From positions 1,760 through 65,759 of the forward strand of contig CAVOIO010000031.1 in the NCBI GenBank assembly GCA_963695915.1: DNA of 64,000 nucleotides, given 5' to 3'. Positions 7,549 through 56,242 of this stretch are shown piece after piece; position 1 is the stretch's first letter; each line of letters opens with the position of its first letter. The position numbers were made by a program, and so were the translations under genes. This stretch comes from an uncultured beta proteobacterium (lineage in GTDB: Bacteria; Pseudomonadota; Gammaproteobacteria; Burkholderiales; JACQAP01). The notes under the pieces were generated by a model. The model saw only the letters and a list, made by a program, of their open reading frames with translations, ran no database searches and was not told the DNA's origin.

Positions 7549-10571
<3,023 letters not shown>

Positions 10572-10646
10572 AGCCGCCCACAGCGTTGGGCGCATTTCCT
10601 CGCCCCTCACTCGTCGCCCGTCACCCGTCACCCGTTAGCGTGAGCC

Positions 10647-12117
10647 ATGGACTGGGAAATCGTCATCGGCATCGAGACCCACGCGCAGCTGTCGACGCGG
10701 TCGAAGATATTTTCGTCCGCGCCGACCGCATTCGGCGCCGCACCAAATACCCAGGCCAGCGCGATAGACCTGGCCCTGCCGGGCACGTTGCCGGTGCTCA
10801 ACAAGGGCGCGGTGGAACGGGCGATCCGCTTCGGGCTGGCGGTCGGTGGAACCATCAACGCGCGCTCGATTTTCGCTCGCAAGAACTATTTCTATCCCGA
10901 CCTTCCCAAGGGCTACCAGATCAGCCAGTACGAAATTCCCGATCGTGCAGGGCGGGGAAATCGCAATAGTTTCACCGATGCGCGGCGACATCAAGGTACA
11001 ACTTACGCGCGCCCATCTTGGAGGAAGATGCCGGTAAATCTCTTCATGAAGATTTTCACGGCATGAGCGGCATTGACCTGAACCGCGCGGGCACGCCGCT
11101 GCTGGAAATCGTGTCCGAGCCGGACATGCGCTCCGCCGAGGAGGCGGTTGCCTATGCGAAGAAGCTTTACAAGCGAATCGGGTACAGTGGATCGACATCT
11201 GCGACGGCAATATGCAGGAAGGATCGTTCCGCTGCGACGCCAACGTCTCGGTGCGCCGCCCGGGCGCGCCTCTCGGCACGCGCCGCGAGATCAAGAATCT
11301 GAATTCGTTTCGATTCCTGCAGCAGGCGATCGACTACGAAGCGAAATGGCAGATCGAAACACTGGAGGACGGCGGCACGATTCGAGCAAGCCACTGTGCT
11401 GTTCGACGCGGATACCGGCAGACGCGCATGATGCGCACCAAGGAAGATGCGCATGATTACCGTTATTTTCCCGATCCCGATCTACTGCCGCTTGTGATAA
11501 CGGATGAAGACATAGAACGCGTTCGCTCAACGATGCGGAAACATCTTGAGGAACAACGTAGGGAATTCGAGACTGCTGGGATTCCGAGCCATGTTGCGGC
11601 GGTTCTAATGGCCAATCCGACTGGAAAGGCGAGAATTGTTGCTAAGGCAATCGAGATTTTGGAGCAGGACAAGAAAATTTCGCCGGAAAAGCGTGCGAAA
11701 ATTCTCATGAATACTGCAAATGCAGTAGTGAGTTCAGCTGCCTCCATATTGGAGAATTGGGGAACATCGCAATTTCAGAAGCCGAATTTGCCTAGTGACT
11801 TGGTCCAAATTCAGCTATACGTCGACGCGGGAAAGATATCAAACAGACAAGCGAAAGAAGTGCAAGACGCCGTACTAGCTGGAGAAGTTTCGGCGGAGGA
11901 AGTAATCAAGACGCGTGGTCTCGAGCAAATGTCCGACAGCGGCGCGATCGAGAAGATCGTCGATGACGTGATCGCCGCCAATCCGCAACAGGTCGCGGAC
12001 TACAGGAGCGGCAAGGAAAAGGCTTTCAATTCGCTGGTCGGCCAGGTCATGAAGGTAACCAGGGGCAAGGCCAATCCCGCCCAGGTGAACGAGATTCTGA
12101 AGAAGAAACTGGGCTAG
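10647..12117 (+). CDS. gatB: Asp/Glu-tRNA amidotransferase subunit B (frameshifted; divergent internal segment)
   Basis: [52 protein letters not shown] and a C-terminal GQVMK..GKANP. Confidence 0.95.
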
Positions 12118-44937: not shown

Positions 44938-45327
44938 CTAGAACATCGTATTGGAGTGTGCCGCCTTACCCGGGACAACTTGGAGCACATCCCAATGCTC
45001 GACAATCTTCCCGTTTGCATCGAGCCGGAAAATGTCGATGCCGGCCCAGTCGCGGTCCTCGAAAGTGGGCCACTCCTGATGGCAATGCAGCACCACGTAG
45101 TTTCCTTCCGCGATAACTCTCTTGAATGAAACCCGCTTGCCCGGATACTCCCTGGCCATTCGCTCGAAATAGGCGATGAAGGCATCCTTTCCATCCGCCA
45201 CTTCCGGATTGTGCTGGATGTACTCTTCGCCGGCATATTTCTCGATCGCCTCTCGCGGCCGGTTCTGATTGAACATCAGGTCGTAAAAGGCGGTTACCGT
45301 TTTCTTGTTCTGATCGAGCTGGTTCAT
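44938..45327 (-). CDS. SnoaL-like / NTF2-fold protein
   Basis: [17 protein letters not shown] and KIVEHWDV; may be an old distal cassette. Confidence 0.85.
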
Positions 45328-45370
45328 CGGCGACGCCCTCCGTGGAAGTAGAAAACGCTACTTGTTGGAC

Positions 45371-45440
45371 GCTTAAGGTTACGCAAAACGGCGCGTGCGA
45401 CGTCGCCGTGCGCGTCCGTGTTGCGCAGTGGGGGTTAGCT
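45371..45440 (-). other. attC site (degenerate, distal)
   Basis: Minus strand AGCTAAC..ACGGACGCGCACG..CGCACGCGCCGT..CTTAAGC. R' is mutated; R'' contains the stop of the upstream ORF. Confidence 0.65.
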
Positions 45441-46502
45441 TCCATGGCCGGTCCGGTTGCGAGTTCCCAAGACCCTGAACAACAGCTCCAAGGGGTAACT
45501 GGCGAGAATGAAGCAGGCAGTCATGCCAAACGCAACGGCACACCAGAGCCCCAGAACGTATACATAGACGATAGCAGGCGGGTGGCCTCCTCCTCCGGCG
45601 GACAGCGCAGCGAGCGCCGCAAGGACAATAGCCACCCCGCCGAACGAGATCAGGTGCCATCGCCACAAGCGCTTGCGCTTGCGCAAGACCTCTTCGGTCG
45701 CAGTTGCCCGGGCGAGCAACCATCCCCAGAAGAGCACACCGAGCAGGCTGGCGGCAACGATGAGTCCGGTGATGAACACCGGCAGGTTGTTTAACGCGGA
45801 ATAACGCGCCAGGAGCGGCGCCTCATACCAGAGTTCCGCGTCAGTCAACGGACGATCGACTTCGCGCGAGGTGATCTCCACGAAATGCAGCACATCTTCA
45901 TCCTTGAGCCGCTCGAATTTGACGATCGACCGGTTTGCGTTGAGCACCCAAAGGCGCTCGCGCCAGACGATCTTGACGTTCGCGCTGTTGGTGAGCGTTT
46001 CGGAGCGTTCGAATACGGTGTACTGCGGAGTCGAAAGCGCGCTGTTGGCCGCATATGACTGCAGGTAGCGGGCTCGTTCGGCTTCATCGCCAAGGCGACG
46101 AGGATCGGCAGAGAACAATTTGAACACGAACACGGGAAAGATCTGGCTGCGGTCCCGGTAGTGGCCAAAAAGGAACGGGTCGTCAAACGACAATTCCTGG
46201 TAACGCCTGCCATGCGGGAGGTAGCGGTAGTACTGCTTCGAATCCGACCAATTCACCAATATGGCGCCCTGCTCGCGCTTTTCGACATACTTGAAGCGGC
46301 CGTCGCGGCGCGCGCACCGTTCGAAGAGCTCCTCGGTATACCGTTGGCCGGGCTCGTCACGACGGCCCCACTTCCCGGCGTCGCAATAGCTGATTGCGCT
46401 GAAATAGCCCGCTGCGATGGACTCGATCGAGATTGGTTCTTCCCCCACGCCGGACAAAGGTACAAGGACTAAGGCCACGAGGACAAGACGATGCATCGGC
46501 AT
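45435..46502 (-). CDS. Cassette ORF: hypothetical protein with signal peptide and three C-terminal TM helices
   Basis: Intact 355-aa ORF exactly filling the space between two attC sites; its stop lies inside AGCTAAC. Confidence 0.75.
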   Translation of the reverse strand: MPMHRLVLVALVLVPLSGVGEEPISIESIAAGYFSAISYCDAGKWGRRDEPGQRYTEELFERCARRDGRFKYVEKREQGAILVNWSDSKQYYRYLPHGRRYQELSFDDPFLFGHYRDRSQIFPVFVFKLFSADPRRLGDEAERARYLQSYAANSALSTPQYTVFERSETLTNSANVKIVWRERLWVLNANRSIVKFERLKDEDVLHFVEITSREVDRPLTDAELWYEAPLLARYSALNNLPVFITGLIVAASLLGVLFWGWLLARATATEEVLRKRKRLWRWHLISFGGVAIVLAALAALSAGGGGHPPAIVYVYVLGLWCAVAFGMTACFILASYPLELLFRVLGTRNRTGHGS

Positions 46503-46515
46503 GGATGCTCGGGAA

Positions 46516-46576
46516 AGCTAACGCTGGCGCTCAGCCGCGCCGCGCTAGCGGTGTCGGCAGGAGCGAATTGTTGGTC
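46516..46576 (-). other. attC site
   Basis: Minus strand GACCAAC...imperfect palindrome...GTTAGCT, 61 bp. Confidence 0.85.
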
Positions 46577-47028
46577 TATCGACTGGTTTCAGAATCATAT
46601 TTCGACTTTTTCGACTGATAGACGCCTTGTTCCGGGCCATGAGAAACGATGAAGCATTGGTACCAGGTTTTTCTCAATAGAAACGTCCTGCCTTTGTTGG
46701 TTACCAGAAAGGCAGCCCAAAGCCGGTTGTTGGCAGCAACATGAAGTTCGCTGATCAACGTTGTACTAATTTCTCCATCCAAAATACTCTTGATCTCTGA
46801 GCTAACTGTATCTTTGTCTCCACGATTTAGCGAATAGACCAAATGAACTTCCTTTACGGCATCGTCCTTGAAAAGATCCTGGAGTGAGGTGCCGCTCCAT
46901 CCACTGCTCGTCTTGAGGTTGATATCGTCCTGATGGATGATGATCTCGGACTCCGAGATTGCAATTGCCCATTGAGGGCAGAATAGAACTGAAATCAGAA
47001 CGACCAAATTGAGTAAATGTTTCATCAT
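46576..47028 (-). CDS. Cassette ORF: low-GC secreted hypothetical protein
   Basis: Signal peptide MMKHLLNLVVLISVLFCPQWAIA; visibly AT-rich; bounded by attC sites. Confidence 0.75.
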   Translation of the reverse strand: MMKHLLNLVVLISVLFCPQWAIAISESEIIIHQDDINLKTSSGWSGTSLQDLFKDDAVKEVHLVYSLNRGDKDTVSSEIKSILDGEISTTLISELHVAANNRLWAAFLVTNKGRTFLLRKTWYQCFIVSHGPEQGVYQSKKSKYDSETSR

Positions 47029-47034
47029 TTTCCG

Positions 47035-47113
47035 GGCCAACGCCGACCATCAGGGGCCGACGAAAGCAAGCGAGGCGCCGCTTTCGTCGGTCCCCTGCAT
47101 GGTCTTGTTGGGC
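47035..47113 (-). other. attC site
   Basis: Minus strand GCCCAAC..CAGGGGACCGACGAAAGC..GCTTTCGTCGGCCCCTG..GTTGGCC, 79 bp. Confidence 0.9.
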
Positions 47114-47123
47114 GTCATTTCGT

Positions 47124-48116
47124 TTATCGGATCACCTCGTTGGCCCGCAGTAGGATTGACTCTGGGATCGTGATACCGAGCGCCTTGGCGGTCTTGAGGT
47201 TAACGACGAGCACGTGCTGCATCGGCTGCTCGATGGGCAGATCTCCGGGCCTGGCCCCCCTGAGGATCTTGTCCACATAGTCGGCTGCCCGACGGAACAT
47301 CACAGCAAAATCTGGCCCGTACGTGATGAGGCCGCCAGCCTCGACGTAATCGCGCGAAGGGTAGATCGCCGGGAGACGTTGCCGGGCGGCGAGCGCCGTG
47401 ACTTGCCCTCGATGTGAAAAGAATACGGGATCGGGAAGCACTAGTACCGCCTGAGCCTTTCGCCCCGCCTGCTCGAAGGCGCGGTCGAGCGCTGCGGGTT
47501 CGCGCACCTCGATGAGACGGAGCTTCAGGCCCTGCGCGGGGGCAATGGCCTTAAGCTCTTTCGCCAGGTCTCTGTCTATCGCGGTGGTTGGGTTCGCGAT
47601 AACGGCGAGGGTTGAAAGCCGCGGGACCATGTCCTTTAGCAGTTCCACCCACTTGCTCGCCAGCCCTTGAGCAAGCCCTACCGAAAGCCCGGTCAGGTTG
47701 CCCCCGGGCCGGGCCAAGCTGGCCACGAGCCCACTGCCGACCGGGTCTCCCATCACTGCGGCGACAATTGGGATTGTGCTGGTCGCATTCTTAGCTGCGA
47801 TCGCTGCTGACGTGCTCCAAGTGACAAGCACGTCGACATCGCGCTCAACCACCTCGTTCATAAGCCCGGGCAGCCGCTCGGGCCGGCCCTCGGCAGAGCG
47901 CGCCTCCACGATGAGGTTCTGACCGTCGACGTAGCCCAGTTCGCGCATGCGTTCCCAGAACGCACTAAGGCCACGCGGGCCGGTGGAGGCCGATTGCGGG
48001 TCGACGAAACCCACTCGCACGACCTTCTGCACTGGCTCTACGGCTCGCGAGGGTTGGGTCCCTAGCGCTGCCACAGTCAGACCAGCGAGGAGGAGCAAAA
48101 GACCGCGCCGTTTCAC
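47124..48116 (-). CDS. Cassette ORF: orphan ABC transporter substrate-binding protein (putative Trp/Tyr-type family), paralog 1
   Basis: GYVDGQN, DPVGSGLVASLARPGGNLTG, GGLITYGPD, YVDKILRGARPGDLPIEQP and NLKTAKALGITIP..LLRANEVIR. Confidence 0.88.
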   Translation of the reverse strand: MKRRGLLLLLAGLTVAALGTQPSRAVEPVQKVVRVGFVDPQSASTGPRGLSAFWERMRELGYVDGQNLIVEARSAEGRPERLPGLMNEVVERDVDVLVTWSTSAAIAAKNATSTIPIVAAVMGDPVGSGLVASLARPGGNLTGLSVGLAQGLASKWVELLKDMVPRLSTLAVIANPTTAIDRDLAKELKAIAPAQGLKLRLIEVREPAALDRAFEQAGRKAQAVLVLPDPVFFSHRGQVTALAARQRLPAIYPSRDYVEAGGLITYGPDFAVMFRRAADYVDKILRGARPGDLPIEQPMQHVLVVNLKTAKALGITIPESILLRANEVIR

Positions 48117-48179
48117 GCGATCACCTGATCCGCACGAAGCACGCGCGCATGACTCGGTTCCACTTTGCTCCCTGATAAC

Positions 48180-48276
48180 GCCCAACGCAGAGCTAACCGG
48201 GCGCCGACGCGCGGCACGCACGGCGGGAACCCAACGGCGACGCCGTTGGGCGCTCGGGTTGAGCGCCGGGTTGGGC
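48180..48276 (-). other. attC site
   Basis: GCCCAAC...GTTGGGC, 97 bp, with an internal CCCAACGGCG-A-CGCCGTTGGG hairpin. Confidence 0.85.
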
Positions 48277-48545
48277 TGTGATTGAAGGCATTGACGCTAG
48301 CATACCGCGACCTTTATGAGACAACATCGCCTGCAGGAAACCACCACTGCTCGCATGACCACGAACCCACGGCTTGCGTCACGCGAATCGTGATCGCAGG
48401 CGCGAGCTTACGCGTACCGACCCTGCGACAAGATCAGTGCCGCTCGCTACGTGACGCAAACGGATCCGGCGCTTGCACACGGAAGCCAGTTCGGTAGGCG
48501 AGCATCTGCGAATTCGACGAACGATTCCAGATTCACCCGAGAGCA
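48277..48545. other. Apparently gene-less integron cassette
   Basis: About 270 bp between two attC sites with no convincing ORF; its core sites are complementary (GTTGGGCTG / CAGCCCAAC). Confidence 0.6.
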
Positions 48546-48634
48546 GCCCAACGTGTTGTTCAGCCGCGCCGGCCACAAATCTTACAGAAAACTCTGCGGC
48601 GCTTCACAGCGTCGGCTGGAACAACGGGTTAGGC
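48546..48634 (-). other. attC site
   Basis: Plus strand GCCCAACGTGTTGTTCAGCCG...CGGCTGGAACAACGGGTTAGGC, 89 bp. Confidence 0.88.
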
Positions 48635-48640
48635 TGCTGG

Positions 48641-49552
48641 TGGGTACGGTCCAGACACATCGGTAACAGAATAGTCCGGGGACATAGGTAACAGTTTATC
48701 CATACTGCGGGCACCGAACGAGGTGCCCATGCCTTGGAGTGAAACTACACCTATGGACCAGAAGACGCAGTTCATTGCCGATTACCTCCGTCAAAGCCTG
48801 TCGATGAGTGAGCTGTGCGAGCTCTACCGCATCAGCCGCAAAAAAAACCGGCTACAAGCTGGTGGATCGCTACCTCAGGCACGGGCCTTCGGGGTTGGAG
48901 GAGCGCTCGCGAAGACCATCGAGCAGTCCCAATCACACACCCGAACACATCGTCGAGGCCATTGTCGCGCTACGCCAACGGCATCCGTCCTGGGGCGCGA
49001 AGAAGCTGCTGCCGATCCTCGAGGGGCGTCACCCGAACTGGGAGCTGCCCGGGCGCAGCACGGTGTGCGACATCTTGAGCCGCCAGGGGTTGGTGCTCAG
49101 GAAACGCAACCGGCGCCACATCGGCCACCCGGGCAAGCCCACCAGCCAGATCCTTGGCCCCAATGATTGCTGGAGCGCGGACTTCAAGAGCCAGTTCAAA
49201 ACCGGCAATGGCCTCTACTGTTATCCGCTCACCGTGACCGATGGCTTCAGCCGCTATCTGCTCGGCTGCCAAGGGCTGGCATCGACCAGCGTGGCAGAAT
49301 CTAAACCCGTGTTCACGCGCCTGTTTCGCGAGTACGGTCTGCCCAAGCGCGTCCGCACCGACAACGGGGTGCCCTTCGCGACCAATACGCTCGCGAGGCT
49401 CTCGCAGCTCTCCGGCCTGGTGGGTGCGTCTAGGGGTGCTGCCCGAGTTGATTGAGCCGGGCAAGCCGCAACAGAACGGGCGCCACGAGCGCATGCACCG
49501 CACGCTCAAAGCCGAGACCACGCGCCCGCCGGCTAACAGCTGCCGCGGCCAG
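48641..49552 (+). mobile_element. Truncated IS481-family element (transposase from 48729, frameshifted, 3' part missing)
   Basis: MPWSETTPMDQK, HPSWGAKKL, WSADFK, RTDNGVPF and PQQNGRHERMHRTLK (DDE). The left end has tandem ACATCGGTAACAG / ACATAGGTAACAG repeats. Confidence 0.85.
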
Positions 49553-49589
49553 CGCTGCCAGGCACGCACGGCTGGCCAGCGTGGCGTCG

Positions 49590-51131
49590 TCACCGACCCA
49601 TCTCCTTCCACAGTCGGGGTTCGATCGATGCGGCTGCCAAGAATCCGCCCATGAATGCGCCCTGAATTCCCGGGCTGACGACGTCCTGCCCGGCGAGCAG
49701 CAACCCGAGCACCGGCGTGCGGACCTTGAGTGAGCTGTGGCTCATGCGCTCAGCTGACATCTCAAGCCCGTACATTGCACCCCGATCGGCCACGACGAAT
49801 GACGCCTGCGATAGAGGGGTCGAGAGTTCATGGAAATCGATCATTGGCGCGAGCTGCGGAAAGTGGCGCTTGAATTGCGCAAGCAGGCTTTCGGCGATCC
49901 AGGCTTTGGTTGCCTCGTACTCCTCGGGCCGATCTCCCGGCGCACCACGTGTCCACGCCGAGAACGGTTCCCAACGACAGATCGCTATGACCTCGGCGGT
50001 ATGGTGTTCAGGGTCTCGATGAGCGGCGTCCTTGAGCGAAGGGAATGACACGAACATCGCCGGCGCGTCTTCGTCCGCGGGGCGCTCCCACACCCGGCCA
50101 ACGTCGTCGCTCTCGTATATCCAAACGTTCGCTGCCGTGGCTCCACGCTGGCGAATATCACCGCGGAACCCCAAATATAGACTCACGTATGAGAGGCCCG
50201 ACTTGAGCGACTCGACTGCGTCACGCCATTCCGGCGCAACGCCTTCAGGAAGCGCTGCGGCCGTGTTGTGCGCGCCCATGGCCGAAAAAACTATGGGCGC
50301 GTCGATCGACTCGCCGTTTGCCATGCGTACGCCGGTCACTCGGCCAAGTGCGACGCGGATCTCCGCAACCGTGGAACGAGTACGCAATTCGCCACCAGCG
50401 CCGATAATGGTTTCTCCCAGGGCCTGGGCAAACTTCGCCGGGCCGCCGAGGGGGTAGTAGGCGCCGGCAAAGTAGCTGCCCGTTACGAGGGCATGTATCG
50501 CGAATGGTGACTGCGCTGGCACCATTCCGTAATCGCCCCAACGCGCAGTGAGCAGCGCTGCCAGGCGTTTATCGCCAATATCACGCACCACTTCGGCAGT
50601 CGTAGTGCCAAGGGCCCGGCGCACGTGTCGCGCGTTGAACCAGCGCATGGGCACCGCGAGAAGGGCGGGAAGCGCTTTGGCTGCGAATAGCGCCCGGCTC
50701 GCTTTTCGCGCCTCGTCCAAGGCCGTGAAATACCTTTCGATGGCTGCGACCTCGTTGGGGAAAGTGGCCTTCAGCCGCGCGATGTATGCCGCTCGCGGTG
50801 CCTCGATCGGGAACTCGAACCCGGGGAGTCGCACGATGTCGTAGGGCGACCCCAGGGACGCGAAGCGTAATCGGCCGTCTGTTAGCCAACGCAGCATGCG
50901 ACCGAACTGGTCCTCGGATCCCGGCGTCTCGCCAAGGCCCCCGATGTAATGCACTCCGGTCGCAAATGTGTATTCACCGCGGATGAAAGTCTGTGTGAGG
51001 CCGCCGAGCTGGAGATGCTGTTCGAGCACGAGAACGCGCCGACCGCGCTTCGCCAACGCCGCCGCAGCCGTAAGTCCACCGATTCCCGAACCGATGACAA
51101 TCGCGTCGCATCTGCGCTCGTTGAAACTCAT
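49590..51131 (-). CDS. Cassette ORF: FAD-dependent oxidoreductase, phytoene dehydrogenase / retinol saturase family
   Basis: IGSGIGGLTAAA Rossmann motif, FATGVHYIG, YYPLGG, STPLS..F, GAMYGL and LLLAGQD. Confidence 0.85.
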   Translation of the reverse strand: MSFNERRCDAIVIGSGIGGLTAAAALAKRGRRVLVLEQHLQLGGLTQTFIRGEYTFATGVHYIGGLGETPGSEDQFGRMLRWLTDGRLRFASLGSPYDIVRLPGFEFPIEAPRAAYIARLKATFPNEVAAIERYFTALDEARKASRALFAAKALPALLAVPMRWFNARHVRRALGTTTAEVVRDIGDKRLAALLTARWGDYGMVPAQSPFAIHALVTGSYFAGAYYPLGGPAKFAQALGETIIGAGGELRTRSTVAEIRVALGRVTGVRMANGESIDAPIVFSAMGAHNTAAALPEGVAPEWRDAVESLKSGLSYVSLYLGFRGDIRQRGATAANVWIYESDDVGRVWERPADEDAPAMFVSFPSLKDAAHRDPEHHTAEVIAICRWEPFSAWTRGAPGDRPEEYEATKAWIAESLLAQFKRHFPQLAPMIDFHELSTPLSQASFVVADRGAMYGLEMSAERMSHSSLKVRTPVLGLLLAGQDVVSPGIQGAFMGGFLAAASIEPRLWKEMGR

Positions 51132-51158
51132 GCTCTTTCGCCTACTGGGTTTTCACCC

Positions 51159-51237
51159 GCCCAACAATACGCATCACTGGCCGGAGCCGGCGGGCGAAGC
51201 CCGCTGGTGACGGTCCGAGTGCAGGCGCGGGTTGGGC
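51159..51237 (-). other. attC site
   Basis: GCCCAAC...GCGGGCGAAGCCCGC central hairpin...GTTGGGC, 79 bp. Confidence 0.85.
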
Positions 51238-51294
51238 GGCACTCTCGCTACTCCTTCTCCGGCCGGGCCCAGAGGGCGCGCGAGCCCGTGCGGT

Positions 51295-52269
51295 TCATCG
51301 GACTACCTCGTCGGCGCGGAGCAGTATCGATTGAGGGATTGTCAGCCCAAGCGCCTTAGCGGTCTTAAGATTGACGACCAGCCTGAACTTTGAGGCTTGC
51401 TCCACTGGCAGATCGCTGACCTTTGCACCCTTGAGCAATCGATCGATATAGTAGGCGGAGCGGCCAAACATTTCGGCTAGAGATGGTCCATAGGACATGA
51501 GGCCCCCGGCCTTGACCGGGATCTCCTCTTGATACATGGTCGGCATCTTCCTCTCGAGAGCCAGGGATGCGATCTGAACACGCTGCTGTGTGAACATCGG
51601 GGAAAACAGGAGGACCACAGCTTGTGCCCCTTGCTTCCTCGCCGCACTGAATGCGGCCGCGTAGTCATAGGAACCGCGCAGCTCAATGCGCTCCAGGTCC
51701 AGTCCCAGGGCGCGGGTGCTTGGCTCTACCGCTGCGAGTTGCCGGGCGCTGGCCGAGTCCCAGAAGACCGCCACCCGCGAAGCGTTGGGCAAGGCTTCCC
51801 TTAGCAACTCTAGGCGTTTGCCAACGAGCTCGGACGTGCGGGAGAAGACTCCAGTCACGTTGCCGCTTGGGCGGCTGAAGCTGTCTATCAACCCGGATGC
51901 TACGGGGTCGTGGTCGAAAGATATGATGATGATCGGAAGCGTGCTGCTCGCTTGCCTCGCGGCTCGTGCCGTGGGCTCTCCACCCACCACAATAACGTCT
52001 GCCCCGAGGTCCACGAGTTCTCTCGCAAGGGCAGGCAGCCGATCCATGTGGTTCTGCGCGGCCCGGCGCTCGATCCTGATGTTGCTCCCGTCAACGTAGC
52101 CGAACTCGCGGAGTCCTTCACGGATTGCCGGAAGAACCGGATCCTCTGGTAGCGCTATGACCATCAGGACGCCCACGACTGGAACCTTGGCGCGTTCCTG
52201 CGCAGCGACGGGAAGGGACAAGGTCATGAAGCACAAGACGGCCGTTCCGAGGCAGCAGCGCGTTTTCAT
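51295..52269 (-). CDS. Cassette ORF: orphan ABC transporter substrate-binding protein, paralog 2
   Basis: GYVDGSN, DPVASGLIDSFSRPSGNVTG, GGLMSYGP, DLPVEQ and NLKTAKALGLTIPQSILLRADEVVR. Confidence 0.88.
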   Translation of the reverse strand: MKTRCCLGTAVLCFMTLSLPVAAQERAKVPVVGVLMVIALPEDPVLPAIREGLREFGYVDGSNIRIERRAAQNHMDRLPALARELVDLGADVIVVGGEPTARAARQASSTLPIIIISFDHDPVASGLIDSFSRPSGNVTGVFSRTSELVGKRLELLREALPNASRVAVFWDSASARQLAAVEPSTRALGLDLERIELRGSYDYAAAFSAARKQGAQAVVLLFSPMFTQQRVQIASLALERKMPTMYQEEIPVKAGGLMSYGPSLAEMFGRSAYYIDRLLKGAKVSDLPVEQASKFRLVVNLKTAKALGLTIPQSILLRADEVVR

Positions 52270-52334
52270 CGGATCACCTTGCACCGCCAACTATCACGGA
52301 CTTGTCCATACTCCTTGCCTGTCTCCTATGTGAC

Positions 52335-52393
52335 GCCCAACGCCTGAATTCAGCGGCGCGCTTCAGCGCGTCCGCTGGAATGAGAGGTTAGCC
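52335..52393 (-). other. attC site
   Basis: Minus strand GGCTAAC..CAGCGGACGCGCTGAAGCGCGCCGCTG..GTTGGGC, 59 bp. Confidence 0.9.
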
Positions 52394-52949
52394 ATTCGAT
52401 CACCCGACCCGCATCTGCATCGGATGGGAAGACAGGGTAAAGCACCTCTTCGATCCGCCCCGCATGGACAATCATAGTAAGACGTTTGATGAGCTGGAAA
52501 CCGGCGAAAGCGAACGTTGGCAGCCGTAAGAGCCGTGCGAAGTGAAGCTGTGCATCGCTTAGAAGGGGAAACGGTAGATGAAGCCTTTGAACAGCCTCCG
52601 ATTGATACTCAGTATCTTGCGTACTCAGGCCGTACACCGTTGCGCCCAAGGCGGCAAGCTCCGCGTAGTGGTCCCGATAGGCACAGGACTGCGGCGTACA
52701 ACCACGTGCGCCCGGGATGGCGTTCCACGCTGCCGCACCGCCTGGCGGTTCCTGATCAGGTCGTCCGGTTCGAGGGTAACAATAGACAACTAGCCAAGGT
52801 CGACCTTCCTTGGACAAATCGACCGTTAGTCCGGAAGTAGCCCTCAAGCCAATTGACGGCAGCATTGACCGACGAAGGTGATCACACGCCCCGTCGTCTT
52901 CTGGGGCGGGCAGGTTCTCGGGAAGAGAATAGAGATTGTCCGTTCGCAT
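52350..52949 (-). CDS. First cassette ORF: peroxiredoxin (BCP/PrxQ-like)
   Basis: YPRTG..IPGARGCTPQSC, GLSTQ, FPLLSD and KRLT; the ORF reads through into the attC. Confidence 0.88.
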   Translation of the reverse strand: MRTDNLYSLPENLPAPEDDGACDHLRRSMLPSIGLRATSGLTVDLSKEGRPWLVVYCYPRTGRPDQEPPGGAAAWNAIPGARGCTPQSCAYRDHYAELAALGATVYGLSTQDTEYQSEAVQRLHLPFPLLSDAQLHFARLLRLPTFAFAGFQLIKRLTMIVHAGRIEEVLYPVFPSDADAGRVIEWLTSHSSGRAEARR

Positions 52950-53111: not shown

Positions 53112-53215
53112 AAGCCTACGCTCGGACCGAATCCGGAACAAGTTCGCCTGAAGCATCGAAGCGTCAGGATGGGGCCGCATACGTCGATTGGACAGGCGGG
53201 TTCGTCACCTTCAAC
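53112..53215 (+). pseudogene. intI: 5' relic of an integron integrase
   Basis: With small frameshifts it reads KPTL-DRI-EQVRLKHRSVRM..AYVDWTGGFVTFN, matching the IntI N-terminus (P.LLDQVR..IRLKHYS.RTE.AYV.WI.RFI.FH). It diverges from the array. Confidence 0.7.
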
Positions 53216-53295
53216 CGGGATTCTCAGTTCCATCCGGGAATACAATAAGGAACCGCGGCAATCTGGCCGTTCGCGGCATGAAAAAGGGAGGCCTC

Positions 53296-54402
53296 ATGAG
53301 TTCTTCTTTGACACGTCGCGAGTTTCTGGCCCGTGCTGGAATTGCGGTTGCGGGCATCCAGACTTTCGAGCACCTTGACCCCTGCTGTGCCTTTGCCGCC
53401 GATGCCAAGACATCGGACAAGGAACTCTTCGAACTCAAACCCGTGGCCGACGGCATCTATGCCGCTATTGCCGCGCCCCGCTACAAGGTCAATTCCAACG
53501 CCGCGGTAATCGTCACCAACGACGGCGTGATCGTGGTGGACTCGCACTCCAAACCTTCCGCCGCGTATGCGCTGTACCGGGAGATCCAGTCGATCACGAA
53601 GCAACCGATCAAAAAGATCATCAACACCCATTTCCACTGGGATCACTGGCAGGGCAACCAGGTCTATGCCGAAGCCAACCCCAACCTGGAAATTATTTCC
53701 TCACAGCGCACGCTGGAGAACATGACCGATCCCGATGCCGGAGGCGGCGGCCTGCCGTACATCGAGAAGCAGTTGGCGAACTTGCCGAAAGAAATCGAGG
53801 CGCTGAAGGCCGACATCCTGCGGGCGGCCGACTCCGGACAGAAAGCCCGACTCGAGGCGAACCTGCAGCAGACCGAGGCGTACCTGGAGGAACTGAAGCA
53901 TATCAAGCCGCCGCTCCCAAACAGGACAGTCGCCAATACGGTTACGCTCAACGAAGGCGGGCGCGAAATTCAGATTCTGTTGCTGGGACGCGGCCACACC
54001 GACGGCGACATCTTCATCCACTTGCCGAAGGAAAAAGTGGTCGTGACTGGGGACGCGGTGATCGACTGGATGCCGTTCATGAATGACGGCTTTCCGGAGG
54101 AGTGGGTGCAAACCCTCGATGCGCTGGAGAAATTCGACTTCACACAGATCATTCCCGGGCACGGCGAAGTCGCGTCCAAGGCTCATCTGGGATTCTTCCG
54201 GGGCTATCTCGCCGATCTCGTCGCCGCGGTCAAGTCGGCGCACGCCGACGGGGCCAGCCTGGATGAAATGAAGAAAGTGATCCCGGATCAACTCGCTGCG
54301 AAATACGAGCGGGGAATGTCGAAGTATCCGCTGGGCCAGTTTCGCGATCGCATAGGACTGAATATTGAAGCGGCCCATCGAAAAGTCATCAGGAAATCCT
54401 GA
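53296..54402 (+). CDS. Tat-exported metallo-beta-lactamase-fold hydrolase
   Basis: TRREFL Tat motif; THFHWDH (HxHxDH), GHTDGD, TGD and PGHG. Confidence 0.88.
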   Translation: MSSSLTRREFLARAGIAVAGIQTFEHLDPCCAFAADAKTSDKELFELKPVADGIYAAIAAPRYKVNSNAAVIVTNDGVIVVDSHSKPSAAYALYREIQSITKQPIKKIINTHFHWDHWQGNQVYAEANPNLEIISSQRTLENMTDPDAGGGGLPYIEKQLANLPKEIEALKADILRAADSGQKARLEANLQQTEAYLEELKHIKPPLPNRTVANTVTLNEGGREIQILLLGRGHTDGDIFIHLPKEKVVVTGDAVIDWMPFMNDGFPEEWVQTLDALEKFDFTQIIPGHGEVASKAHLGFFRGYLADLVAAVKSAHADGASLDEMKKVIPDQLAAKYERGMSKYPLGQFRDRIGLNIEAAHRKVIRKS

Positions 54403-54435: not shown

Positions 54436-56214
<1,779 letters not shown>

Positions 56215-56242
56215 AGCGGGAAGATAACACACCACCACCCCG

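Follow-up and report, generated by a model that had tools for sequence, protein, structure and literature searches.

The window analysed here, a stretch of 64,000 nucleotides from the genome of an uncultured beta proteobacterium, carries on its minus strand two genes, paralog 1 and paralog 2, whose products belong to the PF04392 family of substrate-binding proteins (Table 1). Solved members of this family bind L-Trp, L-Tyr or L-Phe (PMC10443332). Against a Pfam cut-off of 25.9 bits, paralog 1 scores 175.5 bits over model positions 20-293 of 293 and paralog 2 scores 152.8 bits over positions 19-293. The family is represented by 27 matches in this genome, of which 25 exceed the cut-off; the assembly is a metagenome bin of 76.8% completeness and 2.4% contamination in which repeats may be misassembled, and gene starts were assigned by eye. 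In a tree of the family, paralog 1 is sister to C47_b (support 100/100) and paralog 2 groups with C32_g (support 80/72), a member of an array of PF04392 genes on contig C32.

Table 1. Features of the two substrate-binding protein genes and their surroundings (positions in the window).
Feature	Coordinates	Strand	Details
Attc-like hairpin closing the predicted paralog 1 cassette	47035..47113	minus	GCCCAAC...GTTGGCC; 79 nt; 1 mismatch; about -0.67 to -0.68 kcal/mol per nt
Paralog 1	47124..48116	minus	GTG start; 330 aa; N-terminus signal-peptide-like; PF04392 substrate-binding protein, Pfam 1.8e-51
Upstream ORF of paralog 1	48113..48163	minus	16 codons, MEPSHARVLRADQVIA*; TGA overlaps main GTG
Predicted ORF-less cassette	48186..48545	minus	about 360 nt; includes attC-like site 48276-48180
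AttC-like hairpin	48546..48634	minus	GCCTAAC...GTTGGGC; 89 nt; 1 mismatch; -45.2 kcal/mol
IS481-family transposase, inserted in array	48723..49654	plus	degenerate, frameshifted, 3'-truncated; Pfam HTH_32, rve, LZ_Tnp_IS481 on 48808-49455
FAD-dependent oxidoreductase, predicted cassette gene between both paralogs	49590..51131	minus	Pfam NAD_binding_8, DAO, Amino_oxidase
AttC-like hairpin closing the predicted paralog 2 cassette	51159..51237	minus	GCCCAAC...GTTGGGC; 79 nt; 0 core mismatches; -42 kcal/mol
Short ORF 3' of paralog 2	51248..51298	minus	begins in ATGA overlap of paralog 2 stop; MNRTGSRALWARPEKE*
Paralog 2	51295..52269	minus	324 aa; N-terminus signal-peptide-like; PF04392 substrate-binding protein, Pfam 1.6e-44
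5' leader of the predicted paralog 2 cassette	52270..52340	minus	TTGGGCGTCAC, then AAGGAG, then 11-codon upstream ORF; tail-like AAGGTGATCCGATGA runs into start
AttC-like hairpin upstream of the predicted paralog 2 cassette	52335..52393	minus	59 nt; 2 core mismatches; -0.47 kcal/mol per nt; regex-plus-fold scan

Among the neighbours scanned with Pfam (about 40 to 57.7 kb), no ABC permease or ATPase partner was found for either paralog, in keeping with the initial annotation, which had described both genes as orphans. These neighbours comprise the FAD oxidoreductase, the degenerate IS481 transposase (the remainder of which lies in a second frame at 49241-49654), an AhpC/redoxin gene, two ORFs without a match and a metallo-beta-lactamase-fold protein, and the sole ABC gene nearby (54436-56238) is of the exporter type, with ABC_membrane and ABC_tran domains. 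PF02653 has 45 matches in the genome and none in contig C31; two of these matches precede the C32 array but are flanked by Peripla_BP_6 genes. An Rfam scan of 46-54 kb with E up to 1 returned three chance-level matches only, none near the gathering score, and scans of 46.9-53.3 kb identified one sigma-70 promoter site against 1.4 expected and 3 terminator-like sites against 5.5 expected.

The proposed location of both genes within integron cassettes agrees with the attC-like sites that surround each of them. Five such sites are found on one strand within 5.4 kb (47035-52393). Their lengths (59-97 nt) fall within the range of about 55-140 nt for attC hairpins, their cores have 0-2 mismatches, and folding gives -0.47 to about -0.68 kcal/mol per nt; they were identified by our own regex-and-fold scan and not by IntegronFinder or a published covariance model. 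A relaxed scan gave 435 matches genome-wide, a background of about 1 per 10 kb, and stricter settings were therefore applied, under which clusters were found in contigs C34, C31 and C26 only, all three containing family genes. Of 15 family genes tested, 5 have a strong attC-like site on their downstream side, compared with 13 of 400 random windows. R''-like boxes also follow the stops of C26_127, C26_129 and C21_252, but these candidates failed the fold and complementarity test. At the site upstream of paralog 2, the R'' box (GGCTAAC) falls inside the 3' end of the AhpC/redoxin gene and the R' box (GTTGGGC) at 52341-52335, with the predicted crossover G|TT at 52341/52340. In a contig from run X5, similarity breaks off precisely at 51164, where the cassette boundary downstream of paralog 2 is predicted; the public runs, all seen as Logan contigs, covered at best a share of 0.33 of the stretch, none reaching half. 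About 265 nt of the ORF-less cassette recur in seven copies on C34 at 89-92% identity and in one partial copy (blastn and alignment), with a further copy preceding the PF04392 cassette of C34 itself, and in the alignment the conservation of this repeat stops at GTTRRRY. The ORF-less cassette had no match in Rfam.

From these sites, each window gene is predicted to form an integron cassette by itself, bounded by attC-like hairpins, and no integrase lies in the vicinity. Contig C31 has no match to the integron integrase model TIGR02249, for which the best match in the genome reaches 80.8 bits against a cut-off of 265, and a 44-residue N-terminal integrase piece containing a stop lies beside the C34 array. 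The arrangement resembles a CALIN, a cluster of attC sites lacking an integrase as described in the account of Cury et al. 2016 (PMC4889954): at least two attC-like sites, here five, are spaced less than 4 kb apart on one strand, each of the co-oriented genes has an imperfect hairpin with RYYYAAC...GTTRRRY cores behind it, an insertion sequence lies within the array, and the larger array on C34 sits by the integrase remnant. It departs from the standard in that account in one R' box (GTTGGCC) and one R'' box (GGCTAAC), both from our own scan, and in that the genes on the cassettes are paralogous to those of a chromosomal operon in this genome.

Ahead of each paralog lies a family-specific copy of the family's 3' tail, GAGGTGATCCGATGA. 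In the minus-strand reading, paralog 1 ends in GCCAACGAGGTGATCCGATAA and is preceded by GTGCTTCGTGCGGATCAGGTGATCGCGTGA (48142-48113), which codes for VLRADQVIA* and whose TGA (48115-48113) overlaps the GTG start of the gene (48116-48114), all of which had been pointed out initially and was confirmed. Paralog 2 ends in GCCGACGAGGTAGTCCGATGA, followed by ACCGC, and the repeat reported in front of it, AAGGTGATCCGATGA (52280-52266), is indeed present, matching the end of paralog 1 at 13 of 15 positions and its own end at 12 of 15; the similarity upstream of this gene is limited to 13-15 nt. The region 48143-48119 matches a profile built from the last 90 nt of 21 paralogs (model positions 60-84) with a genome-wide E of 0.98, which is weak alone but falls exactly at the start. 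At 13 or more of 15 positions, GAGGTGATCCGATGA occurs at 26 sites in the genome, 23 of which touch family genes, whereas five mononucleotide shuffles gave 6-11 sites. The 4.28-Mb genome contains 15 exact copies of AGGTGATYCGRTGA. Fourteen lie either at the tail of a family gene or gene fragment or immediately ahead of a family start, and the remaining one is antisense inside an ORF-less cassette. The motif in front of each gene is real, far from chance and more than a generic Shine-Dalgarno sequence.

The synonymous codons of the tail are biased towards GAGGTGATCCGATGA. Across 21 genes, CGA encodes the final Arg in 13 of 15 cases and CGG in the other 2, compared with an internal Arg usage of 17% and 26%, respectively (n = 461); Val at position -4 is encoded by GTG or GTA in 18 of 19 cases (43% internally), Glu at position -5 by GAG in 12 of 13 (64% internally), and the stop is TGA in 18 of 21 genes. 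The last codon together with TGA yields ATGA or GTGA. Since the 16S gene ends in ...GGATCACCTCCTT, GAGGTGATCC within the tail is a perfect 10-nt complement of the 3' end of this genome's 16S rRNA.

In tandem arrays of this genome, of its genus and of many phyla, the next gene starts in the tail overlap. The C32 array comprises two blocks, each with four of its eight copies; behind the array come a dCache-HAMP-GAF sensor and, next to it, a GAF-HisKA ORF. Successive paralogs overlap by 4 nt (ATGA or GTGA) at five junctions, and a 4-nt overlap is also found between C32_d and an ORF of no assigned family and between C32_h and the sensor. In other phyla, 41 of 84 adjacent same-strand pairs (77 loci) overlap by 4 nt. 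The head-to-tail units envisaged in the initial annotation do exist: one operon of this genome contains eight of them, and further arrays are seen throughout the genus and in other phyla. Its suggestion that the tail also provides the next copy with a ribosome-binding site and start is supported by the 16S complementarity, the 4-nt array overlaps and the codon bias. Translational coupling by means of overlapping stop and start codons (ATGA or GTGA) is well known from operons. The four-base overlap and the placement of the Shine-Dalgarno sequence inside the end of the upstream gene are shared with such operons; unlike them, the coupling sequence here is a protein C-terminus conserved in all paralogs, and each gene would therefore carry an initiation region for any other.

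The tail pieces in front of the window genes are probably a form of translational coupling that was kept after release from an array, the genes now being integron cassettes. Both genes would belong to a strongly expanded periplasmic PF04392 family whose native arrangement is the head-to-tail array. The last codons, Asp-Glu-Val-Ile-Arg-stop (GAT GAG GTG ATC CGA TGA), would be dual-coding, with GAGGTGATCC pairing with the 16S rRNA 3' end and the A or G of the last codon forming, together with the TG of the stop, the ATG or GTG of the next gene seven bases after GAGG. A terminating ribosome could restart on the next gene because the tail supplies both the 16S pairing and the overlapping start. 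The window genes would since have left the array and become single cassettes, each enclosed by attC hairpins within an integrase-free cluster, and a piece of the former upstream neighbour's tail would have been kept because it is the translation-initiation region of the gene. For paralog 1, this piece would be the 16-codon upstream ORF, placed directly after the 5' boundary of the cassette, with its own Shine-Dalgarno sequence and with its stop overlapping the main start; for paralog 2, the upstream ORF would have been frameshifted to 11 codons, but the tail-like Shine-Dalgarno sequence and the start of the gene remain. Ribosome coupling and translation of the upstream ORF are suggested by this layout, and we infer that the cassettes derive from arrays and not the reverse. 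What looked like a new mobile element would become explicable as a C-terminus whose nucleotide sequence is under selection to provide the ribosome-binding site and start for any gene that follows it, and a gene dependent on translational coupling could survive moving by taking a piece of its neighbour with it as a mini-ORF.

At the sequence level, both paralogs display the architecture expected of a coupling upstream ORF, with its own Shine-Dalgarno sequence and start and an end at or near the main start. In paralog 1, GGGAG placed 4 nt ahead of the GTG of the upstream ORF serves as its putative Shine-Dalgarno sequence, and the last 9-10 codons of this ORF are similar to the PF04392 family tail. 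In paralog 2, AAGGAG is followed after 1 nt by an ATG at 52309 that opens an 11-codon frame (MDKSVIVGGAR*), out of frame relative to the tail, which ends with a TGA at 52274, 4 nt ahead of the main ATG. The main start lies 70 nt from the G of R' in paralog 1, 72 nt in paralog 2 and 73 nt in C47_a, and the length class and 5' motif of the paralog 2 leader are common to the leaders of other paralogs. The arrangement is comparable to ORF-11, ORF-17 and ORF-18 of class 1 integrons, described as short ORFs that bring their own initiation region and, through coupling, enhance the translation of cassettes, in that an ORF of 11-18 codons with its own Shine-Dalgarno sequence lies just upstream of the cassette gene and ends at or near its start (PMC8876359). 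In contrast to these, the ORF here lies in the cassette's own 5' leader and not in attI, resembles the C-terminus of the same protein family, and has a putative role only (PMC8876359).

A tail stub ending at the start is found in at least 9 of 14 non-array copies, plus C32_e, with upstream homology that varies by copy (about 13, 19, 25-29, 65, 90 or more, and ~350 nt); the short stubs are parts of a common leader of roughly 70 nt containing the upstream ORF. Judged by eye, an intact 16-codon ORF after an AAGGAGG- or GGGAG-like site is present in six leaders (paralog 1, C47_a, C47_b, C47_c, C21_230 and the C10 remnant), an open frame of 15 codons in GC-rich DNA being weak evidence of constraint, and shortened versions are present in C34 (12 codons) and paralog 2 (11 codons). 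Besides paralog 1, at least six further copies have a leader of this type. Within the same genus, 20 fetched loci contain 12 short profile matches, six of which are stubs ending exactly at the start, such as MVLWSVLIRADVVIR* in L049. In L070, a gene 61% identical to paralog 1 immediately follows a complete paralog, the two overlapping by GTGA. A stub is not indispensable, since a 66%-identical relative in L059 starts with an ordinary GGAGG and without a stub. The L059 gene would suit an origin of the upstream pieces as neutral debris of deleted neighbours, of which only leftover Shine-Dalgarno-like bases are used and which have no role in translation, as would the wide variation in stub length, the truncation of two upstream ORFs, the intact ORFs before two dead genes (C21_230 and the C10 remnant), and leader folds that, in six leaders, are no more stable than shuffles (z-scores -1.36 to +1.56). 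Such an origin is nevertheless considered unlikely: every stub ends precisely at the start, stubs are still present in copies whose proteins share only 40-55% identity, several retain 16 codons and have gained their own Shine-Dalgarno sequence and start, and the codon bias points to nucleotide-level selection on the same motif in intact tails.

Two minor points concern the leaders themselves. A pairing of a 5' GCGUCAC with the tail GUGAU(C/G)C recurs in two of the six leader folds, for which no claim is made. The leader GTTGGGCGTCAC was considered as a descendant of the family GGCATCAC (Gly-Ile-Thr codons) and dropped, the spacing being off by ~18-20 nt and the similarity weak.

The initial annotation had gone further and proposed that the genes move or amplify by recombining at AGGTGATC, a second mobility system that is not supported here. 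A distinct site-specific system of this kind, nested in the integron and moving the genes as cassettes via AGGTGATC, would account for the direct motif copies that flank each gene, for a motif nearly exclusive to the family and for the tandem arrays, but direct tail repeats around one gene are expected, because any unit from a head-to-tail array would carry them, and the motif is accounted for by the protein C-terminus together with its Shine-Dalgarno and start function. The upstream homology runs past the motif by variable lengths without a single fixed end, the tails show no recent homogenisation, and in contigs from other metagenomes the break falls at an attC boundary and not at the motif. 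The co-occurring recombinase that would go with such a system was not found in the scanned ORFs around C32, C47, the start of C34 and the window, where the degenerate IS481 of the window is the sole transposase. Taken with these observations, a dedicated system at AGGTGATC is highly improbable. Apparent joints between the paralogs that skip ~4.2 kb had sides of 24-25 nt separated by 35-37 additional letters, at 90% likeness, and were read as paralogs of other organisms mapping to both genes.

The conserved tail could also be a preferred site of ordinary homologous recombination, by which whole genes are gained, lost and reordered in arrays or cassettes without a dedicated recombinase. The number and type of members in arrays before the same sensor differ among species of the genus, PF04392 copy number ranges from 0 to 17 across 24 other genomes of the genus, homologous leaders are found on genes of different clades, and the last 30 codons are the most conserved part of the genes (58-65% amino acid identity versus 41% elsewhere). 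The share of identical codons is however only 0.48 in the last 10 codons versus 0.38 in the rest, and this barely raised synonymous identity indicates no recent exchange or conversion of tails; unequal crossing-over anywhere in the genes would moreover give the same unit-wise changes, and tail-directed recombination is regarded as improbable.

On the downstream side of paralog 2, ATGAACCGC (MNRRE...) also occurs in a C34 cassette, and MNRR is the N-terminus of the array member C32_d, suggesting that the short ORF at this position is probably the N-terminal stub of the next gene in the ancestral array. Tentatively, the cassettes may be footprints of cassette birth, cut from the lineage's own binding-protein operon and carrying on one side the tail-derived upstream ORF as a stub of the upstream neighbour and on the other ATGAACCGC ('MNR...') as a stub of the downstream one, in which case the tail-derived ORF would be a portable initiation region that keeps the cassette gene translatable behind any attC hairpin. 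With clear operon paralogs in the same genome and stubs on both sides, the locus may bear on how integron cassettes are made, and cassette birth, if it occurred in this way, would offer a rare opportunity to see where a new cassette has its boundaries.

Lineage-specific expansions of orphan solute-binding proteins have been described for the TTT/Bug family in Rhodoplanes and Bordetella (PMC5994714). The PF04392 genes are similar to these in consisting of many paralogous binding proteins without membrane components of their own and in a copy number that varies strongly among relatives, and different in belonging to another Pfam family, in standing head to tail and in being partly located on predicted integron cassettes (PMC5994714). 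Solute-binding proteins can also feed sensor kinases (PMC8050422), and the eight-gene array, with the overlapping start of the sensor behind it and the GAF-HisKA ORF beyond, is suggestive of such a system as read from the genes alone, whereas no sensor lies beside the two window genes (PMC8050422). With 0-27 Pfam matches per genome within one genus, these orphan binding proteins, partly wired to a sensor kinase, are a candidate ligand-sensing repertoire. The last array gene before the sensor is of the g-type in G001 and of the h-type in G000, G021 and G013.

The two PF04392 substrate-binding-protein genes of the window, paralogs 1 and 2, have signal-peptide-like N-termini (by eye) and lie among attC-like sites (Table). 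The initial annotation reported that neither is accompanied by a permease or ATPase, and this holds for importer types among the Pfam-scanned neighbours; the sequence strings it quoted are all present. Paralog 1 ends in ...GAGGTGATCCGATAA and is preceded by 30 nt (48142-48113, minus strand) encoding VLRADQVIA*, the TGA of which overlaps its GTG start. Paralog 2 ends in ...GAGGTAGTCCGATGA, followed by ACCGC, and is preceded by AAGGTGATCCGATGA (52280-52266), identical to the end of paralog 1 at 13 of 15 positions.

Table. Features of the window, followed by repeats elsewhere in the same genome
Feature	Position	Strand	Remark
ORF	45435-46502	-	no match in Pfam scan
ORF	46576-47040	-	no match in Pfam scan
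attC-like site	47113-47035	-	closes paralog 1 cassette
Paralog 1	48116 (GTG) to 47124 (TAA)	-	PF04392, 1.8e-51
attC-like site	48276-48180	-	within ORF-less cassette, upstream of paralog 1
attC-like site	48634-48546	-	before ORF-less cassette
IS481-family transposase	48723-49654	+	Pfam; degenerate, frameshifted near 49440, 3'-truncated
FAD oxidoreductase	49590-51131	-	Pfam
attC-like site	51237-51159	-	closes paralog 2 cassette
Paralog 2	52269 (ATG) to 51295 (TGA)	-	PF04392, 1.6e-44
attC-like site	52393-52335	-	upstream of paralog 2 cassette
AhpC/redoxin	52350-52949	-	Pfam
Metallo-beta-lactamase-fold protein	53188-54402	+	Pfam
Exporter-type ABC protein	54436-56238	-	Pfam
Second upstream region, ~200 nt	C47:60100-60330, C47:61490-61760, C21:230236-230450, C35:187737-187893, C10:237583-241615		
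Heptamer-like repeats, examples	C21:230545-230600, C21:53322-53479, C5:15173-15336, C19:27607-27733		blastn

The attC-like sites were called by our own scan for RYYYAAC...GTTRRRY pairs that fold with the cores paired. Strict settings gave 49 matches genome-wide, clustered only in contigs C34 (13 places), C31 (the contig of the window; 4) and C26 (3), each of which holds family genes. In the available text of PMC4889954, a CALIN is defined as two or more attC sites less than 4 kb apart with no integrase nearby; with five attC-like sites and no neighbouring integrase, the window holds a CALIN by this definition, and the initial assignment to integron cassettes is right, both subject to our home-made caller. 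The assembly yielded no intact integron integrase (top score 80.8 bits, cut-off 265). The C34 array (~79.5 to 96.5 kb) lies beside an integrase remnant (C34:78391-78525, minus strand) with a 44-residue N-terminal match to the integron integrase model (29 bits, one TAG), located ~1 kb before the first attC-like site. An ORF-less cassette of ~360 nt (48545-48186, minus strand) sits immediately 5' of a PF04392 cassette both in the window, ahead of paralog 1, and in C34, where ~265 nt of it recur in seven copies at 89-92% identity and one partial copy (C34:79761-93974), three of them in tandem at 80968-81959; the similarity ends at GTTRRRY. This cassette has no Rfam match and no convincing promoter, and contig depth at 48209-48395 is very high (~1000) in public run X3. 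A contig of run X5 that matches the oxidoreductase cassette departs from the window precisely at 51164, where the G|TT crossover is predicted (contigs only). The degenerate IS481 gene lies within the cassette array and overlaps the end of the oxidoreductase gene. Downstream of paralog 1, degenerate attC-like boxes follow the first unannotated ORF (GACCAAC...GTTAGCT, 46503-46575, minus strand) and the second (GCTAAC..., 45330-45436, minus strand), and the cluster may extend towards 45 kb, where a SnoaL-like gene is located (44938-45327).

The tail motif AGGTGATYCGRTGA is present at 15 positions in the 4.28-Mb genome: 14 are the tail of a family gene or fragment or lie immediately 5' of a family start, and one is antisense in an ORF-less cassette that no family gene follows. 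With up to two mismatches, GAGGTGATCCGATGA has 26 sites, 23 of them family-linked, and 6-11 in five shuffles. The motif is therefore family-specific; the match is neither chance nor merely a Shine-Dalgarno sequence, the explanation that the initial annotation had set against its own proposal. The 16S gene (C15:456-1994, minus strand) ends in ...GGATCACCTCCTT, therefore GAGGTGATCC is a perfect 10-nt Shine-Dalgarno; the last codon and TGA form ATGA or GTGA, placing the start 7 bases past GAGG. Tail codons were compared with the internal codons of the same 21 genes, which include C21_148 (internal TAG) and the frameshifted C34 copy and exclude pseudogene C21_230. The final Arg codon is CGA in 13/15 tails and CGG in 2/15 (internally 17% and 26%, n=461), Val at -4 is GTG or GTA in 18/19 (43%), and Glu at -5 is GAG in 12/13 (64%); the stop, not compared internally, is TGA in 18/21. 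P-values are not given because the paralogs are not independent. This bias shows that synonymous sites in the tail are under selection and, together with the 16S complementarity and the array overlaps, gives good support to the earlier proposal that each tail also serves the next copy as ribosome-binding site and start.

PF04392 has 27 Pfam matches in this metagenome bin, which is 77% complete. Contig C32 carries eight copies in two blocks of four, downstream of a Liv-type binding-protein and permease cluster and upstream of a dCache-HAMP-GAF sensor with an adjoining GAF-HisKA ORF. Four-base overlaps join copies a-b, b-c, c-d, e-f and f-g, as well as C32_d to an unknown ORF and C32_h to the sensor. 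In this region (C32:19369-31000; L033, L136) an ATGA overlap leads from the eight genes to a dCache-HAMP-GAF-GAF protein of 797 aa, which together with the overlapping GAF-HisKA ORF may represent a single split sensor kinase. Arrays in genomes G001, G021, G015 and G007 are followed by the same sensor start, which suggests binding-protein-fed signalling. Two ORFs lacking a Pfam match (245 and 231 aa; L033:9786-10523 and 10510-11205; C32:23285-24704) split the array; the first begins in the ATGA overlap of C32_d, and C32_e, which comes next, carries the upstream-ORF leader in shortened form.

Among 24 other genomes of the genus, 15 have at least one match (range 0 to 17). In 20 fetched regions most genes end in GAGGTGATYCGRTGA and four to five stand in tandem ahead of the same sensor, with gene types and order varying between species. 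A wider pattern search, limited to a single genome from each species, yielded 77 loci in Methylomirabilota/Rokubacteria, Binatia, Beta-, Alpha- and Deltaproteobacteria, Acidobacteria and Actinomycetota. In these, 128 near-full-length genes have the C-terminus [EKRQ]VI[EKQR]*, 76 of them terminating in ATGA or GTGA, and among 84 adjacent same-strand pairs 41 show a start within the four-base overlap. The head-to-tail overlapping arrangement is thus general beyond this genome. It was not found among the six listed papers mentioning PF04392, including the available part of PMC10443332, which does not show it to be unpublished.

Outside such overlaps, several starts are preceded by leaders or tail stubs, with upstream ORFs and starts assigned by eye. 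In the paralog 1 cassette, GGGAG lies just past the G|TTGGGC boundary and is followed, after a 4-base spacer, by a GTG (48163) that opens a 16-codon ORF (MEPSHARVLRADQVIA), whose TGA overlaps the main GTG. The shared build, namely GTTGGGCGTCAC, AAGGAGG, 5-6 nt, GTG and 16 codons ending xDEV(I/T)(R/G) with the stop overlapping the start, recurs before C47_a (MELNYLGVLHSDEVIR), C47_b, C47_c, C21_230 and a truncated C10 remnant. A GAG-to-TAG change shortens the C34 ORF to 12 codons, and the ORF in the paralog 2 leader is in another frame, runs for 11 codons and terminates 4 nt short of the ATG. From the G of the R' core box to the main start there are 70 (paralog 1), 72 (paralog 2) and 73 nt (C47_a). 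Predecessor tail pieces measure ~117 codons before C21_227, at least 90 nt before C32_a, 65 nt before C21_148 and 19 nt before C32_e. In relatives, 6 of 12 short profile matches are stubs whose end coincides exactly with a start, in one case that of the sensor gene. A gene 61% identical to paralog 1 (L070) directly follows a full-length paralog, the two overlapping at GTGA, and an attC-like site lies downstream of the pair; another, 66% identical (L059), has an ordinary GGAGG and no stub. After the stops of paralog 2 and the C34 cassette, ATGAACCGC (MNR...) is kept and resembles the C32_d N-terminus.

The initial annotation had proposed a second mobility system, in which the genes recombine as head-to-tail units at the tail motif, nested in integron cassettes. 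A fixed crossover at AGGTGATC would end upstream homology there, which instead runs for variable lengths. Recent exchange at the tail would raise synonymous identity, and the share of identical codons among identical residues (19 genes, all pairs) is only slightly raised: 0.48 for the 10 terminal codons, 0.45 and 0.44 for the next 20 and 30, against 0.38 elsewhere in the genes. Apart from the degenerate IS481 gene of the window, scans around C32, C47, the head of the C34 array and the window revealed no recurrent recombinase. In a 20-row tree leaving out C21_230, C34 and all fragments, deep forks are weak and stub-bearing copies are scattered, each beside a type of array member: paralog 2 groups with C32_g (80/72), C47_a and C47_c with C32_d (100/100), C21_148 with C32_b and C32_f (91/90), and paralog 1 with C47_b (100/100). 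Homologous leaders occur on genes of different clades. This scatter would fit either array members having been released more than once or whole units having been reshuffled by ordinary recombination.

Given the sequences, arrays, 16S complementarity and codon bias observed, the repeat is probably the family's translation-initiation module, kept as a remnant in released copies; we infer translational coupling and a direction from array to cassette. Within arrays the repeat is the C-terminus of the preceding gene; in released copies, including both window cassettes, it would be a remnant. For paralog 1 this remnant would be the upstream ORF, which with its own Shine-Dalgarno may load ribosomes just beyond the attC boundary and pass them to the overlapping main start. 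Such loading is expected by analogy with ORF-11, ORF-17 and ORF-18 of class 1 integrons, as described in the available text of PMC8876359.

Leader folds are no more stable than shuffles. An 8-pair hairpin, GATCGCG...GCGCGGTC (48101-48122, minus strand), surrounds the overlapping upstream-ORF stop and paralog 1 start and might keep the start inaccessible until ribosomes translate the upstream ORF. The second conserved upstream region, with the palindrome TCCGCACTATCATTACATATGCGGA and a TTGACC box, lies ahead of three family leaders and elsewhere. C47_a and C47_c are followed by GTTGAACGTCCGTTTCGAA, so the region itself may constitute a promoter-bearing cassette without an ORF. Tandem heptamer-like repeats of the GAGGGGC/GAGGGAA type, evident as a flood of blastn matches, are scattered over many contigs.
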